The notes below the pieces were generated by a model. That model made no database searches and was not told the origin of the DNA. It was given only the letters and a program-made list of their open reading frames with translations. Positions 9,442 through 63,799 of a stretch of DNA of 64,000 nucleotides are shown piece after piece (within the stretch, counting starts at the first letter, position 1; the number at the start of each line of letters is the position of its first letter). This stretch comes from Candidatus Doudnabacteria bacterium RIFCSPHIGHO2_12_FULL_48_16 (lineage in GTDB: Bacteria; Patescibacteriota; Doudnabacteria; UBA920; O2-02-FULL-48-8): NCBI GenBank assembly GCA_001780035.1, contig MFEY01000007.1:331146-395145 (forward strand). The letters are read 5' to 3'. A program made the position numbers and the translations under genes.

Positions 9442-10140
9442 ATGTCATATTGGTTTAATTTAATTTTAGTTTATCCCCTGCTCAATCTGTTGGTCTTTTT
9501 TTATCACTATATTCCGGACATCGGGGTGGTGATTATTATTTTGACGGTGCTGACGCGGCTGTTGCTCCTGCCATCGTTTCACAAGCAGCTCAAAAGCCAG
9601 AAAGTCATGAATGAGCTGCAGCCAAGAATGACTGCTCTCAAAGAAAAACATAAGGACGACAAAGAAGCGCACGCTAAGGCCATGATGGAGCTTTACAAGG
9701 AACATAAAGTAAACCCCCTAAGCGCCTGCCTGCCGTTGCTTATTCAGCTGCCGATTTTAATTGCCCTCTACCAGGTCTTTATCCAGAGCCTCAATGGCAC
9801 CCAACTGCACGGTCTGTATTCCTTCATTGCCGATCCGGGCCAAATTAATCCCATGTTTTTGCACTGGATTAACCTCGGGGGCCGCAATGTCGCCATGGCG
9901 ATCGTTGCCGGTTTGCTCCAGTATTTTCAAAGCCGGCTGATGCTGCCCAAGCAGCAGAGCGCCGATACCACGACCAAGATGATGCAATACCAGACGCTCT
10001 ATTTCCTGCCAGCCGTGACGGTTTTTATCGGCATGCGGTTTCCGGCCGGTTTGACCCTCTACTGGATTGTTACCACCCTGTTTGGCATTGCCCAGCAATA
10101 TTATATTTTAAGAAGAGAAGTGCAACCGGTTAAGGTATGA
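9442..10140 (+). CDS. yidC: membrane protein insertase YidC/Oxa1
   Basis: 232 aa polytopic; short YidC type; synteny with yidD and jag. Confidence 0.88.
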   Translation: MSYWFNLILVYPLLNLLVFFYHYIPDIGVVIIILTVLTRLLLLPSFHKQLKSQKVMNELQPRMTALKEKHKDDKEAHAKAMMELYKEHKVNPLSACLPLLIQLPILIALYQVFIQSLNGTQLHGLYSFIADPGQINPMFLHWINLGGRNVAMAIVAGLLQYFQSRLMLPKQQSADTTTKMMQYQTLYFLPAVTVFIGMRFPAGLTLYWIVTTLFGIAQQYYILRREVQPVKV

Positions 10141-10244
10141 ATCCCGTTATAAATTTTGCGTGGTTAACTACTGGCAAAAGCTATATTTTACGGGTTGATA
10201 ATAAAAATTATATATTATATTAACTAATCACTATTTCTAACGGG

Positions 10245-10763
10245 ATGAACGAGATACTTAAAAAAATTATTTTAGACTTACTGCGGCAGATGGGTTTTGA
10301 GGCCGAAGTTTATGAGCGGATGGAAGAAGACCGCACGGTTTTTAATGTCAAAACTAGAGACGCTCAGCTGTTGATCGGCAAGCAGGGTGCGAATCTGCAG
10401 GCTCTGCAGCATCTGATCCGAATTTTGTTTCGCAAGCAAACCAATGATGACCCGTCTCGCCCGGCGCGAGCCGAGGCGGACCGGTTTCCGTTTGCCGTCG
10501 ATATCGATGACTACAAAGACCAGCGCAGTTTGTATCTGAAGGAGTTGGCGCGCAAGGCCGCCCACCACGTGCGCCAAACCCGTAAGCCGGTGTCACTCGA
10601 ACCTATGCCGGCGCATGAGCGCCGGGTGGTCCATTCTTATCTTTCACTTTATAATGATATCGGTTCCGAAAGTGTGGGGGTGGAACCGAATCGCAAATTG
10701 ATTATCAAGCCCAAACAAAAACCCAAGGACAAGGATGGGTTTAATTTCGTCGAAAATAGTTAA
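10245..10763 (+). CDS. jag: Jag/KhpB RNA-binding protein (KH + R3H domains)
   Basis: 172 aa; C-terminal R3H-like ERRVVHSYL; follows yidC. Confidence 0.8.
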   Translation: MNEILKKIILDLLRQMGFEAEVYERMEEDRTVFNVKTRDAQLLIGKQGANLQALQHLIRILFRKQTNDDPSRPARAEADRFPFAVDIDDYKDQRSLYLKELARKAAHHVRQTRKPVSLEPMPAHERRVVHSYLSLYNDIGSESVGVEPNRKLIIKPKQKPKDKDGFNFVENS

Positions 10764-59662: not shown

Positions 59663-61879
59663 ATGGCCCGCAAACGAAACCAAGATTCAAACGACTTTCC
59701 CTCATTCAAAAGACCGCAGCTCAATTTAAAGCACGAAACCCGCAAGGGCGTGCTGATTGTGCTGTTTTTGGTCTTGGCGATTGTGTTTGTGCTCAGTTTA
59801 GTTGGCCTCGCCGGCCCGTTTGGCAGCATCACCAACCGGGTTTTGAAGCTGGCGTTTGGATGGGTCGCCTATCTGGTGCCGCTGATTTTTATGTTTGTGG
59901 CCTTTGCGCTGTTTCGGCAGAAGAGCGAAGATGATGCGTCTTCGGTTTCAACCCATGCTTATGTCGGTGCCGTGCTGATTACCTTGACCTTGACCGGTTT
60001 TTTGCATCTGCTAATGCTGCGGTCGAATATTAACCGCGCGTTTGATTTGGTCAAAGAGGGGGCCGGCGGCGGTTATTTGGGAGTACTGACCAGCTATCCC
60101 TTGATGCACTTTATGGGATTCGTCGCCTCGCTGGTGATTTTGCTCGCCGGTATCATTGTTTCATTTCTCGTGACCTTCAATGTTTCCTTCTCCGATTTGT
60201 TTGGCGGCCCGGCCGACGCGCCAGCGCCAAAACCTCTAAATGGCAAGCTGAAAATCAATAATGCCGCCAATGCCGGTTTTACCAAAGAGCCGGTGGGTGA
60301 GCCGAACAGAGTTGCGCTGCGCGAAAAAGTGGAGTTTACGGTCAACGGTCTGGATGATCTGGACAAAGGGATTGCGAAAAAATCCAAAGCCGTGCTAGCC
60401 GCGGATAAAAATTGGAAATTTCCGCCGCTGGATTTGCTGGAGGAATCCAAGACCAAAGTTGATTCCGGCAATATCGAAGCCAACGTCGCGATCATCCAAA
60501 AAACTTTGAATGATTTTGGCATTGACGTCGAGATGGGCGAAGTCAACGTCGGCCCCACCGTCACCCAATATACTTTCCGGCCGGCCGTCGGGGTCAAACT
60601 GTCTCAAATTGCCGGTTTGCAAAATGACCTGGCCTTGTCCTTGGCGGCTTCATCGTTGCGTATGGAGCTGCCGATTCCCGGCAAGGCTCTGGTCGGCGTC
60701 GAAATTCCCAATAAATCTGCGGCATTGGTGCGCGTTAAGGACATTATTGGCAATGCCGCGTTAAGTGAAAATCCGTCGAAGGTGGCATTTGCCCTGGGTC
60801 GCGATGTGGCGGGCCATCCAATGGTCGCTGATTTGGCCAAGATGCCGCATTTACTGATTGCGGGCGCGACCGGCACTGGGAAATCGGTGGCGATCAATTC
60901 AATCCTGATCAGTTTTCTGTATCGGGCGACGCCCTCGGAAGTGAAATTTATTGTCATTGATCCCAAGCGGGTGGAGCTCAATCTTTACAACGATCTGCCG
61001 CATCTTCTGACTGGCGTGATCACTGATCACCAAAAAGCGGTCAATTCTTTAAAGTGGGCCGTGGCGGAAATGGACCGTCGGTATAAGTTGCTGTCCGAAG
61101 TGCATAAGCGCAACATCGGGGAATTTAATAACTCATCTTTGATCAAACTGCCCTACATCATAGTGGTGGTGGATGAGTTGGCTGATTTGATGAGTGTGGC
61201 CCAAAATGAAGTGGAAGCGACCATTGTGCGTTTGGCCCAAATGGCGCGCGCCGTGGGGATTCATTTGGTTTTGGCCACGCAACGGCCGTCAGTTGATGTC
61301 ATCACGGGATTGATCAAAGCCAATGTTACGGCCCGCATGGCGTTTGCGGTGGCTTCTCAGGTGGACTCGCGAACAATTTTGGATATGGCCGGGGCGGAAA
61401 AACTGTTAGGCTCCGGGGATATGCTTTACGTGACTTCGGATTTGCCTAAACCAAAACGCGTGCAGGGTGCCTATGTGAGCGAGAGGGAAATCAAAAAAGT
61501 CGTAGAATTTATCAAAGAGCAAGCCGGCAGCATTATTTATGACGAGCAGATTACAGAGAAGCCGCAGCGGGGTGTGAGCATTCCCGGGTTCGAAGGCGGC
61601 AACGATGATGAAGATGAATTGTTGAACGAAGCGATGGAAATTGTAAAAGCCGCGGGTAAAGCATCGGCGTCATTGTTGCAACGAAGGTTGCGCGTCGGTT
61701 ATGCGCGCGCTGCCCGTCTTTTGGACATTTTGGAAGACAAGGGAATCATCGGCCCCGGCGAAGGCGCCAAGCCGCGGGAAGTCTATATGTCAAATGATTC
61801 ACCGCGCGAACAAGGTTTTGGTGAGTCTGACGAAGCGGCCGAATTTGAAAAGTCTCAAAAGAGCGAAGAGGAAGAATAA
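59663..61879 (+). CDS. ftsK: DNA translocase FtsK
   Basis: 738 aa; N-terminal TMs, motor domain Walker A GATGTGKS, VVVDELADLM, C-terminal gamma wHTH. Confidence 0.95.
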   Translation: MARKRNQDSNDFPSFKRPQLNLKHETRKGVLIVLFLVLAIVFVLSLVGLAGPFGSITNRVLKLAFGWVAYLVPLIFMFVAFALFRQKSEDDASSVSTHAYVGAVLITLTLTGFLHLLMLRSNINRAFDLVKEGAGGGYLGVLTSYPLMHFMGFVASLVILLAGIIVSFLVTFNVSFSDLFGGPADAPAPKPLNGKLKINNAANAGFTKEPVGEPNRVALREKVEFTVNGLDDLDKGIAKKSKAVLAADKNWKFPPLDLLEESKTKVDSGNIEANVAIIQKTLNDFGIDVEMGEVNVGPTVTQYTFRPAVGVKLSQIAGLQNDLALSLAASSLRMELPIPGKALVGVEIPNKSAALVRVKDIIGNAALSENPSKVAFALGRDVAGHPMVADLAKMPHLLIAGATGTGKSVAINSILISFLYRATPSEVKFIVIDPKRVELNLYNDLPHLLTGVITDHQKAVNSLKWAVAEMDRRYKLLSEVHKRNIGEFNNSSLIKLPYIIVVVDELADLMSVAQNEVEATIVRLAQMARAVGIHLVLATQRPSVDVITGLIKANVTARMAFAVASQVDSRTILDMAGAEKLLGSGDMLYVTSDLPKPKRVQGAYVSEREIKKVVEFIKEQAGSIIYDEQITEKPQRGVSIPGFEGGNDDEDELLNEAMEIVKAAGKASASLLQRRLRVGYARAARLLDILEDKGIIGPGEGAKPREVYMSNDSPREQGFGESDEAAEFEKSQKSEEEE

Positions 61880-61961
61880 TAATAGTTGTAATAGTAAGTT
61901 GAAACTCGCAAATTTGCGTGTCGGAATAAATTATTCTATAATAGTATAAATTACCTAAAAT

Positions 61962-62519
61962 ATGATCGAACTCAGAGATAAATCTAGGTTTGACGCTTCA
62001 AAATATGACTCTAGTGAAAAGGCTGACAAAGCCTTTGAAAGGTTGTCATTAGACGAAATTGAACGCCAAAAAGCCGAGCATAGATTTTTAGACGAGAGGC
62101 AGCATGAGCTATATAAGTTTCAGACTGGAATTGGTACAGACATTAGACTTATTAGCCACGAACTTCAATCCAATAGTCCACCAACAGAAATTTCTCGACA
62201 ACGATTGGATGAGTTACAACGTCAATTTAATGGGCTTAAGATAAAAGCTGAAAGATTTTTTCAAGACCAAAAGGAAAAATTTAGAGGAGGTGTGTATCCT
62301 CTGAAAACTGATTTTAGTGTAGTGACTAAAGGGACTGATGTAGGTCATCACTACGATACTGCTTTACATGCAGAACGAGCATCTTTAATAGAACAATACC
62401 AAATTTTAATAATGGCTATTGGTAATTATCAAATAGTTCTTGAGGATCTGGATATACCCAGTATTCAGAGGAGACTGAATGAACGAAAGCAAGCAGGAGC
62501 TGCTAAGGAAGCAAAATAA
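61962..62519 (+). CDS. hypothetical helical protein
   Basis: 185 aa, charged/coiled; no family recognised. Confidence 0.5.
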   Translation: MIELRDKSRFDASKYDSSEKADKAFERLSLDEIERQKAEHRFLDERQHELYKFQTGIGTDIRLISHELQSNSPPTEISRQRLDELQRQFNGLKIKAERFFQDQKEKFRGGVYPLKTDFSVVTKGTDVGHHYDTALHAERASLIEQYQILIMAIGNYQIVLEDLDIPSIQRRLNERKQAGAAKEAK

Positions 62520-62575
62520 TTTAAGTGGGCTTAAGACAAGATTCAAAATGAAATTGCAGAACAAGATTAATTAGT

Positions 62576-62604
62576 TTGACAAAATAATTTAGCGGGAGCA
62601 TAAT
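62576..62604 (+). promoter_or_regulatory. sigma70-type promoter of a candidate small RNA
   Basis: TTGACA (62576-81), 17-nt spacer, CATAAT (62599-604). Confidence 0.55.
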
Positions 62605-62610
62605 TTATTT

Positions 62611-62714
62611 ATTAGAGCGGCCATAGTCCGTCAGAAGTCCGATGCGTTCTCGCATCGGCAGTCGCCAAAAGGCGACTTACTTCTAACGGGCTGAAGAGCC
62701 GTTTTTGTTTTTTG
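62611..62714 (+). ncRNA. candidate small structured RNA (about 100 nt), class unknown
   Basis: own promoter; outer helix CCGTCAGAAG/CTTCTAACGG (1 mismatch) enclosing CCGATGCG-TTCT-CGCATCGG and AGTCGCC-AAAA-GGCGACT; ends in GGCT-GAAG-AGCC + GTTTTTGTTTTTT. Confidence 0.4.
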
Positions 62715-62809
62715 TGATATCATTTAGGCATTAATTGAATTGTTGCATTTTTTGCAACAGCTGAACTTACCGGAATTTCCGGGCAGTTGGGCGGTTTAGG
62801 AGGTATTTT

Positions 62810-63799
62810 ATGGAAATTCAGGAAAATAAGGGCGAAATTATCATTTATAAGGCTGAATCAGGCCCAGAACTTCAAGTTAAACTTGAAGACGAAACTATTT
62901 GGCTTAATCAAGCCGAAATTGCCAGCCTTTTTGACACTGACCGTAGTTCTATAGCAAAACACATAAAAAATCTAATAAAATCAGGGGAATTAGAAGAAAA
63001 AAGCAATGTGCAAAATTTGCACATTGCAAATTCAGACAAACCGGTTAAGTTTTATAATCTAGATTTTATCTTATCCGTTGGTTATCGAGTAAATTCAAAG
63101 AGAGCTACCCAATTCCGTATTTGGGCCACTAAACACCTTCGGGATTATCTTTTGAAAGGCTATCTTGTCAATGAAAAGCGGCTAAAAGAGAATGAGGAAA
63201 TTAAGCTCAAGGAACTCCAGGCGGCTGTGGGACTCATGCAGCAGGCGCTGGAAGTCAAAAGACTTGAAGGTTATGAGAAAGAATTACTCAATATCATTAC
63301 GGATTATGCCAATACCTGGCTGACGTTTTATCAATTTGATGCCGGTCAGTTGCCGCTTCAGGGCAGCAAGAAGTCGGCAAAGTATTTGGAATACGATCAA
63401 ATCAAAAAAGCGATTATACGATTCAAACAACGGTTGCTGAAAAACGAAGAGGCCAGCGAATTGTTTGCTCAGGAAGTTTCGGAAAAATTGCTTTCACTGC
63501 TCGGTAATATCAAGCAGAGCTTGGGCGGGCAGGATGTTTATCCGACGCTGGAAGAAAAAGCCGCCCATCTGTTATACTTCGCGGTCAAAAATCATCCGTT
63601 CGTGGACGGCAACAAGCGGATCGGAGCGCTGCTGTTTATCTTGTTTCTGGTCGAGAATAATTATCTGCACAACAAAAAAGGCGAACGCAAGATCAATGAC
63701 GCGGCGCTGACTGCCGTTACTTTGTTGGTGGCGGAATCCAAACCGCAGCAGAAAGAGGTTATGATCAAGCTGATCGTTAACTTGATCAATAAAAAATAA
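62810..63799 (+). CDS. RhuM-like N-terminal domain fused to a Fic/DOC domain protein
   Basis: 329 aa; N-terminal RhuM-type region (WLNQAEIASLFDTDRSSIAKHIKN, SVGYRVNSKRATQFRIWAT); C-terminal Fic motif HPFVDGNKRIG. Confidence 0.8.
   Translation: MEIQENKGEIIIYKAESGPELQVKLEDETIWLNQAEIASLFDTDRSSIAKHIKNLIKSGELEEKSNVQNLHIANSDKPVKFYNLDFILSVGYRVNSKRATQFRIWATKHLRDYLLKGYLVNEKRLKENEEIKLKELQAAVGLMQQALEVKRLEGYEKELLNIITDYANTWLTFYQFDAGQLPLQGSKKSAKYLEYDQIKKAIIRFKQRLLKNEEASELFAQEVSEKLLSLLGNIKQSLGGQDVYPTLEEKAAHLLYFAVKNHPFVDGNKRIGALLFILFLVENNYLHNKKGERKINDAALTAVTLLVAESKPQQKEVMIKLIVNLINKK

Follow-up and report, generated by a model that had tools for sequence, protein, structure and literature searches.

Rickettsia palindromic elements (RPEs) are short palindromic mobile repeats that lie in frame within housekeeping genes, where they are read through, and that also occur between genes (PMC10969869). 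The QMITE1/2 elements of Coxiella and the SPRITE, BOX, and RUP elements of pneumococci have inverted repeats, a target duplication, and a stable fold of the transcript; they insert close to promoters and terminators, small RNAs (sRNAs) or terminator-like structures arise from some of them, and their insertions cluster or nest (PMC10969869, PMC5896051). The subject here is a 64-kb stretch of DNA (hereafter the window) from a genome of Candidatus Doudnabacteria, within the Candidate Phyla Radiation (CPR, or Patescibacteria), in which a three-way junction of 66 nt (62626-62691, forward strand) separates a promoter, P1, from the gene of a RhuM-Fic protein. This junction is likely to be one copy of a MITE family (MITE, miniature inverted-repeat transposable element) widespread in CPR, lodged in the loop of a terminator hairpin, and thus a passenger rather than a regulator dedicated to Fic.

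The family resembles RPEs in that it populates reduced genomes and is found in frame within unrelated housekeeping genes as well as between genes, a likeness that is functional only. RPEs measure ~150 bp and belong to Rickettsia, among the Alphaproteobacteria, whereas the copies of the CPR family are 62–74 nt long (33–140 nt in the superfamily). Other marks that set it apart from RPEs are a clear 4-bp duplication, a covarying three-way junction, and a series of lengths that rises by 3 nt at a time. As for the copy in the window, it does not behave as an RPE, because it is intergenic and, at 66 nt, off this period. With co-transcribed MITEs, of which the Correia elements of Neisseria are a comparable case, it shares a position next to promoter and terminator, here in the loop of the latter, and in relatives the same intergenic region holds other small palindromic insertions. 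SPRITE supplies its own terminator, whereas here the terminator predates the element; the sequence family and the hosts also differ, and the expression of an sRNA is only predicted.

A preliminary description of this DNA had proposed an orphan promoter driving a structured RNA of about 100 nt, and the sequence elements that it listed are all present where it had placed them. P1 (62576-62604, forward strand) consists of TTGACA (−35, 62576-62581), a spacer of 17 nt, and CATAAT (−10, 62599-62604). It matches 11 of the 12 consensus positions, as does only one other of the nine promoter-like sites between 61800 and 64000, a region where shuffles give 4.7 such sites. Transcription from P1 would begin on the same strand around A62611–A62614. 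The outer helix of the junction pairs 62624-62638 (the left inverted repeat and two flanking bases) with 62679-62693 (the right inverted repeat and the TG of a TGAA), with one mismatch, C.A. It encloses two perfect hairpins, CCGATGCG-TTCT-CGCATCGG at 62639-62658 and AGTCGCC-AAAA-GGCGACT at 62660-62677. The minimum free energy (MFE) of 62605-62714, folded as a three-way junction, is −52.2 kcal/mol; the mean of shuffled sequences is −26.0 (standard deviation 3.4, z = −7.74), and none of 200 shuffles is as stable. No plausible open reading frame (ORF) occurs, as the longest one overlapping the region has 30 aa and lies on the minus strand. Neither is there a recognizable RNA family, in agreement with the preliminary description: no Rfam match overlaps 62576-62714 even at E ≤ 10, ARAGORN finds no tRNA or tmRNA in this interval, and a scan of the whole window at Rfam gathering thresholds returns tRNAs only.

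The 3′ end requires one correction. The preliminary description had noted a local hairpin, GGCT-GAAG-AGCC, followed by a U-run. The U-run is borne out, but this hairpin is not the stem adjacent to it, and it is absent from two of the collected comparison loci, L004 and L085 (such L-numbers label these loci throughout). What abuts the U-run is a basal helix formed over a long range, which encloses everything else in the fold. Its 5′ arm (GAGCGGCC, 62615-62622, with the core GCGGC at 62617-62621) pairs in the MFE fold with 62696-62704 (core GCCGU), within a 3′ arm that reads G.GCCGUUU and runs into the U-run TTTTTGTTTTTTG (62696-62715). The GCGGC/GCCGY pairing is kept in every relative, with or without the junction, and in all of them GCCGY and the U-run follow the hairpin, including those where it is short.

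RhuM-Fic loci from species-representative genomes, and from contigs encoding close homologs, show that promoter and terminator are older than what lies between them. P1 is carried by 12 distinct loci of the Doudnabacteria type; it is degenerate in L086, and the L085 contig begins inside the stem, leaving only hairpin and U-run visible. TTGACA is invariant, the −10 hexamer is CATAAT, TAGGAT, or TAGACT, and the spacer changes in sequence at a length of 17 nt (18 in L089 and L226). Constant hexamers and spacer length with a variable spacer sequence, as found in L003, L004, L083, L087, L088, L089, L090, L225, and L226, are what a genuine promoter is expected to show in such a comparison. In every locus, a near-consensus P1 directly precedes a terminator made of an A-tract, a hairpin, and a U-tract. 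Nine of the 12 loci (L003, L083/84, L086, L087, L088, L089, L090-92, L225, and L226) have no junction. They show instead, ~10 nt after P1, a short hairpin with an A-tract, GGCGGC, a loop of ~6–7 nt, GCCGY, and the U-run, so that the product of P1 would be only ~30–35 nt long. In the three others (the window, L004, and L085), a junction of ~70 nt lies exactly within the loop of this hairpin. The empty site of L083 reads GGCGGC-TGAA-AAAGCCGC, and filled sites read GCGGC-(C/T)ATA-element-TGAA-RA(G/A)-GCCGY. Empty hairpins fold at −12 to −15 kcal/mol and filled RNAs at −52 to −58 kcal/mol. In the window, the TGAA at 62692-62695, in the loop of the original hairpin, is the presumed target site and the 3′ copy of its duplication; the 5′ copy, at 62622-62625, would be a TGAA decayed to CATA.

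The distribution of filled and empty sites does not appear to follow the RhuM-Fic protein. The nearest relatives of the window by RhuM-Fic identity, L086 and L087 (83%), are empty, and the filled loci are not monophyletic in a neighbor-joining tree of RhuM-Fic, which is based on one protein and weakly resolved. A single gain was rejected on the grounds of this same tree, with the same reservation. Promoter and terminator travel with RhuM-Fic as a unit, because L225 keeps both P1 and the hairpin with a Pif1-type helicase upstream in the place of FtsK. Outside Doudnabacteria, searches of 80 RhuM-Fic loci of other taxa with BLAST, nhmmer, and a covariance model found no element, the only hits being the Doudnabacteria loci L004 and L085. 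An RNA specific to RhuM-Fic was therefore discarded, as the element is absent from these 80 loci and present outside the RhuM-Fic context.

The junction is also a dispersed repeat. One metagenome scan, with the pattern GAAGTCC N8-38 GGCAGTC N5-35 ACTTACTTC, composed of the three junction-proximal segments common to the three Doudnabacteria copies, matched at least 118 contigs; columns that this pattern itself dictates cannot vary among the matches and are uninformative. Among the matches listed, all but about nine chance ones share the outer helix as well, and 74 distinct copies were obtained, in unrelated genes and intergenic contexts. The window copy (62626-62691) can thus be aligned with 73 others. 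The consensus of the family is (A)CCCCGTTAGAAGTCC-hairpin 1-GGCAGTC-hairpin 2-GACTTACTTCTAACGGGG(T), and its terminal inverted repeats, CCCCGTTAGAAGT/ACTTCTAACGGGG, are 13 bp long and at least 90% conserved. The ends of the window copy are GTCCGTCAGAAGT...ACTTCTAACGGGC, and its tips, GTCCG...CGGGC, deviate from the consensus by changes that compensate each other. A covariance model built from the copies gives the window copy 73.9 bits, as the sole match in the window, and finds additional diverged copies on metagenome contigs. Single contigs may hold three to five copies inside 5–14 kb. The same inverted repeats also surround unrelated interiors, for total lengths of 33–140 nt, the shortest, at 33 nt, having hardly any interior and the AT-rich ones measuring 100–140 nt. 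The family is widespread in CPR genomes. Searches of viral contigs with the junction pattern and with a pattern for the pair of inverted repeats found no copy, and the 12 matches to a 15-mer there fail the model; a phage origin was accordingly rejected. No description was found in the literature on CPR MITEs and palindromic elements or on the repeat sequence, which is an absence in the searched literature and not a proof of novelty.

Several properties of the copies are those of MITEs. Of 66 copies, 30 have the same 4 nt on both flanks and 14 more show a single mismatch between them, whereas shuffled pairings give on average 4.0 identical flanks (maximum 12 in 1,000 shuffles). The target consensus is Y-T-N-R, with a clear duplication of 4 bp, which is degenerate in the junction copy of the window. 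At 62–74 nt (33–140 nt in the superfamily), the copies leave no room for a transposase, and they share their terminal inverted repeats. They are dispersed and numerous, as the contig count above indicates, and this genome alone has three members of the superfamily, even though the junction subfamily has one copy only in the window. Presence/absence polymorphism is found at the terminator loop, with three filled and nine empty sites, and in PheS, which exists with and without an insert.

The second superfamily member in the window is 104 nt long (10142-10245, forward strand), with the ends TCCCGTTATAAAT...ATTTCTAACGGGA and an AT-rich interior. It is flanked by perfect TGAA duplications (10138-10141 and 10246-10249) and lies between the ORFs 9442-10140 and 10245-10763, leaving intact the stop codon of the first and the start codon of the second. 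The left duplicate provides the TGA stop of the upstream ORF, and the last A of the element together with the right duplicate remakes the ATG of the downstream one; the two genes probably overlapped ancestrally as ATGA. The third member, L145:7075-7182, belongs to the same genome, ~3.3 kb past the end of the window. It is homologous to the second, and the junction model gives it 27.5 bits, owed entirely to the inverted repeats.

The lengths of the copies, counted from CCCCG to CGGGG, are 62, 65, 68, 71, or 74 nt in 67 of the 74 cases. In these 67, the element plus its 4-bp duplication is a multiple of 3 nt, and such 3-nt steps mean that the two together make up whole codons. Of 66 copies, 30 lie in ORFs that continue without a stop through at least 90 nt to either side (forward orientation, 13; reverse, 17), with the translations PVRS...TSNG (24 copies) and PLEV...LLTG (six copies). 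The family is thus an in-frame coding repeat. Its host genes include those of ArgS (arginyl-tRNA synthetase), PheS, an acetylornithine-type class-III aminotransferase, PanC, RsmB, LplA (lipoate-protein ligase), and an ArsA-like ATPase. In the alignment of PheS, the insert falls between the motifs NPKxV and QGFAFGMG, and most CPR homologs lack it; the nearest homologs of the insert-bearing PheS are from Patescibacteria, Sungbacteria, and Parcubacteria. The copy in one PheS gene, whose protein carries the NCBI name Candidatus Sungbacteria, has perfect inverted repeats of 16 bp (CCCCGTTAGAGAATTT), a TTCA duplication, and 105 added nucleotides, i.e., 35 codons. Off-period copies, including the three 66-nt copies of Doudnabacteria, are never within long ORFs. 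The window copy is off-period because the loop of its hairpin 2 has 4 nt and not the usual 3 nt; being intergenic, 66 nt long, and interrupted by a TAA stop in the usual PVRS frame, it is not itself an in-frame coding repeat.

Some host genes show more than a simple insertion. In the arginyl-tRNA synthetase gene of L129 (3393-3587), tandem and nested copies of different subfamilies share one open frame (...PVRDGDALRTLAVSNG...TSNGVYPVRSPIPKGIGSRSARLTSNGV...). In the CPR PheS alignment (columns 395-430 and 210-250), the NPKxV/QGFAFG site has inserts of different subfamilies according to lineage, and another variable stretch, closer to the start of the protein, likewise looks insert-derived. Short PheS remnants found elsewhere, RTTPPGGGV and PLAGGV, may be decayed copies or footprints.

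The fold is strongly conserved throughout the family. Pairing is kept in 97.1% of the cells of the alignment (98.9% in the outer helix) and drops to 33–48% when the registers are slid. Cells with a double change number 200, whereas column shuffles give 50.8 and none of 500 shuffles reaches 200. In hairpin 1, five of the seven pairs covary, and all four types of Watson-Crick pair are represented. The strand on which the fold acts could not be taken from the wobble pairs, which show no strand bias (20 G.U versus 30 A.C). Because G.U and A.C pairs are about equally frequent and copies lie in genes in both orientations, there is no sign of family-wide selection on a single-strand transcript; better than an RNA acting from one strand, a need of the mobile DNA itself or the decay of individual copies fits these counts. 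The junction has only two unpaired bases and its loops are not conserved, which leaves no pocket for a ligand.

Among the orthologous copies, the changes are few and mostly preserve the structure. Between the window and L004, eight stem positions differ, and at every one of them pairing is maintained or made better (three compensatory pairs, C.A to U-A, and U.G to U-A), while five of the eight loop positions have changed. Within the hairpins, L004 differs from the window by two compensatory pair changes in hairpin 1 and by one G-C to A-T change in hairpin 2. L085 has one disruptive stem change, a C.A.

These observations suggest a history that starts in an ancestor of some Doudnabacteria, where a terminator hairpin was already in place and one copy would have inserted at the TGAA of its apical loop. 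This target hairpin (A-tract, GGCGGC...GCCG stem, and U-run) would have stood directly downstream of the sigma-70-type P1 and before RhuM-Fic. As transcription from P1 would start 1–4 nt ahead of the stem, the element presumably forms the body of a transcript of ~95–105 nt. Such an RNA would consist of the split terminator stem around the element, almost fully paired, and would end at the original U-run. The compact fold of the insert would hold the arms of the old stem next to each other, so that transcripts from FtsK and from P1 would still be terminated. It is proposed that substitutions in the stems preserve structure for this reason, the fold of the insert having to bring the stem arms together. 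Elsewhere, the frames open in both orientations would let copies persist in frame within protein-coding genes.

Some points weigh against a MITE passenger. In the ~1.3 Mb of collected loci, these inverted repeats were not found on any autonomous element or with any transposase; a search for wide-spaced or unpaired inverted repeats beside long ORFs returned housekeeping genes and one transposase of the IS110 family. For a DDE-type element that moves by cut and paste, there is no obvious need for a pair of covarying internal hairpins. In the window copy, the duplication is degenerate (CATA versus TGAA, two of four positions matching) and the termini differ from the consensus, although by mutually compensating changes. 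The structure-preserving substitutions between the window and L004 suggest selection on this particular copy, and possibly its co-option. Finally, transcription from P1 and termination at the U-run are themselves predictions from sequence. The IS110-family transposase is the only one found beside a copy. Its gene (L118:1505-3105, with the domains DEDD_Tnp_IS110 and Transposase_20) adjoins a copy of the junction type whose left inverted repeat has been replaced, which is consistent with the insertion of an IS110-type element into that repeat.

The main alternative is that the element arrived as a MITE and is now a functional, fully base-paired RNA of ~100 nt driven by P1, acting in trans, binding a protein, or serving as a stronger terminator or insulator. 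P1 is near-consensus and conserved, the 5′ and 3′ ends of the RNA are paired, its fold is far more stable than that of empty sites, and the stems of the three orthologous copies have changed in a structure-preserving way, except for the one C.A of L085, while loops changed freely. With promoter and terminator both conserved, a discrete RNA of ~95–105 nt with paired ends is plausible, and the locus may produce a stable promoter-driven RNA. The sRNA of the preliminary description is retained to this extent, but not with a role dedicated to Fic. A function of this RNA nevertheless seems unlikely, since nine of the 12 orthologous loci do without it, among them L086 and L087, the nearest to the window by RhuM-Fic identity, three orthologs are few for an argument from substitutions, and the need to hold the split terminator stem together explains the conservation of structure equally well. 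A dispersed functional RNA, whether gene or ribozyme, that had spread in the form of an RNA module and not as a DNA transposon would account for the strong covariation in hairpins 1 and 2 and for the highly conserved junction-proximal sequence. It would not account for direct repeats of 4 bp at the borders, for identical inverted repeats around unrelated interiors (down to the 33-nt version that has none), or for the lack of orientation bias in host genes (13 forward, 17 reverse) and of an excess of G.U over A.C. The 3-nt periodicity of lengths and the open frames would be superfluous for an RNA module, and almost no conserved nucleotide is unpaired and available for a catalytic core, which makes this explanation highly improbable.

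Two further proposals of the preliminary description tied the structure to the Fic gene and are abandoned here: a junction that is missing from nine of 12 orthologous loci and that is a dispersed repeat is not a riboswitch, attenuator, or antitoxin dedicated to Fic. As a cis-acting riboswitch or attenuator, it would control the read-through from P1 into RhuM-Fic. The succession of promoter, structured leader, U-run, and gene fits this, as does the association of P1 and hairpin with RhuM-Fic even next to the Pif1-type helicase of L225. However, most orthologous leaders lack the junction, which has two unpaired bases, variable loops, and neither a conserved unpaired core nor a pocket. There is also no competing fold, because the terminator stem encloses the whole element and leaves no alternative anti-terminator pairing. 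As other copies lie in either orientation within genes, the terminator is followed by a conserved block of the extended −10 type, and no Rfam match exists, such a role is very improbable. Least probable of all, to the point of being nearly negligible, is an RNA antitoxin or partner of the Fic/Doc-domain protein, for which adjacency to the gene is the sole support. RhuM-Fic occurs without the RNA in nine of 12 loci, the RNA family occurs at more than 100 sites with no Fic gene nearby, none of the 80 RhuM-Fic loci of other taxa carries it, and it has no tandem repeats of the kind found in type III antitoxins.

With a MITE passenger as the preferred reading, one may speculate further, with considerable doubt about the whole, that CPR harbor an undescribed large family of codon-periodic, orientation-independent MITEs that routinely add segments of 22–35 residues to essential enzymes such as PheS and ArgS; that the junction fold is needed for mobility through a single-stranded or structured intermediate; and that one Doudnabacteria copy has been co-opted as a stable, fully base-paired RNA of ~100 nt, driven by a promoter and under structural selection.

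Other known elements offer partial likenesses. Insertion sequences of the IS1380 family have ends that begin with CC(T/C) and make duplications of 4–5 bp; the eukaryotic piggyBac has CCC...TAGAAA ends, a TTAA target, and precise excision. The ends of the CPR family (CCCCGTTAGAA / TTCTAACGGGG), its 4-bp duplication at a T-T-N-A-like target, and its clean-looking empty sites recall both, and an IS1380/piggyBac-like enzyme may be regarded, by analogy, as a lead to the source of transposase. Repetitive extragenic palindromic (REP) sequences and REPINs, which are mobilized by RAYT transposases, make no duplication and are targets of IS110-family insertions. The CPR family is like them short, GC-rich, hairpin-forming, and dispersed, with one IS110 insertion (in L118), but it differs by its duplication, its ends, and its frequent in-frame position within genes. 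REPs are described as extragenic, with GTAG or CGTC tags (PMC3733652).

Other identities were considered and rejected. The resemblances to the start of 5S RNA (GCGGCCATAG), to the small SRP RNA, to the hammerhead core (CUGAAGA by the junction), and to CR-I of RNase P (GAAGUCCG) do not fit in architecture and have no Rfam match. Integron attC sites have the core-site order 5′-RYYYAAC...GTTRRRY-3′, a single bulged hairpin, and an arrangement in cassette arrays. Here the order is reversed (GTTAGAA...TTCTAAC), the fold is a three-way junction, and the copies are dispersed, not arrayed. Both attC and PATE of the IS200/IS605 type were rejected because of the order of the core sites, because the family makes a duplication, and because the end hairpins are unlike.

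The remainder of the locus is as follows. The order of genes is DHH phosphoesterase, FtsK (59663-61879), an orphan ORF of 185 aa (61962-62519), the P1-terminator unit, RhuM-Fic (62810-63799), a RodZ-like gene, and RecA. The RhuM-Fic protein is 100% identical to one from a metagenome-assembled genome named Candidatus Doudnabacteria by NCBI, and the RhuM-Fic locus is found on the NCBI contig MFEU01000009 as well. The orphan ORF is present between FtsK and P1 in this genome only and has no Pfam or PHROG match. A direct repeat of 12 nt, CAAAATAATTTA, occurs at 62512-62523 and 62580-62591, and the interval 61880-62575 looks like a lineage-specific insertion.

After the U-run, an extended −10-like block, P2 (TG-A-TATCAT, 62715-62723, forward strand), is likely to be the promoter of RhuM-Fic itself. 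The sequence TGnTATnATTTAGG is conserved at this place in the window, L085, L003, L089, L083, L088, L225, and L226; the version of L004 is TGATATAAT, and in L090 an insertion of 33 nt separates the TG from the hexamer. This insertion is a GC-rich palindrome (L090:1416-1450). In L088 (1330-1440), an element of ~75 nt with CCAGGAAGT... inverted repeats and a TTGA duplication is inserted in the −35 of P1, and in L004 (2803-2840), a hairpin of 33 nt lies between P1 and the stem. The palindromic insertions of these three loci make the intergenic spacer an insertion hotspot.

The 5′ untranslated region of RhuM-Fic has palindromes of its own. One of them, CCGGAAWTTCCGG (62770-62782), is also found in L225, L226, and L089 and is conserved in sequence without covarying; it looks like the operator of a protein, possibly for autoregulation by the RhuM-type N-terminal domain. 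Another hairpin, at 62739-62761, keeps its pairing with a changed sequence (TTGTTGCA...TGCAACAG in the window and L225; ACTACCG...CGGTAGT in L085, L003, and L089) and could be regulatory or yet another small palindromic insertion. An inverted repeat of 14 nt, 86% complementary, links 62767-62780 (TTACCGGAATTTCC) in this untranslated region to 62812-62825 (GGAAATTCAGGAAA) in the first codons of RhuM-Fic, and such pairing could occlude the start region of the gene.

At the level of the locus, reading the junction as a MITE copy takes away what had looked like an attractive orphan sRNA, riboswitch, or antitoxin: a mobile palindrome in a terminator loop behind a real promoter mimics a novel structured RNA gene, and structured-RNA screens of metagenomes are affected as well. 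More generally, small CPR genomes tolerate a prolific MITE family in frame within core translation and metabolic genes. As a consequence, gene calling and protein alignments in CPR will show PVRS...TSNG inserts of 20–35 residues, and the family bears on ideas of how the proteins of reduced genomes gain new surface loops.

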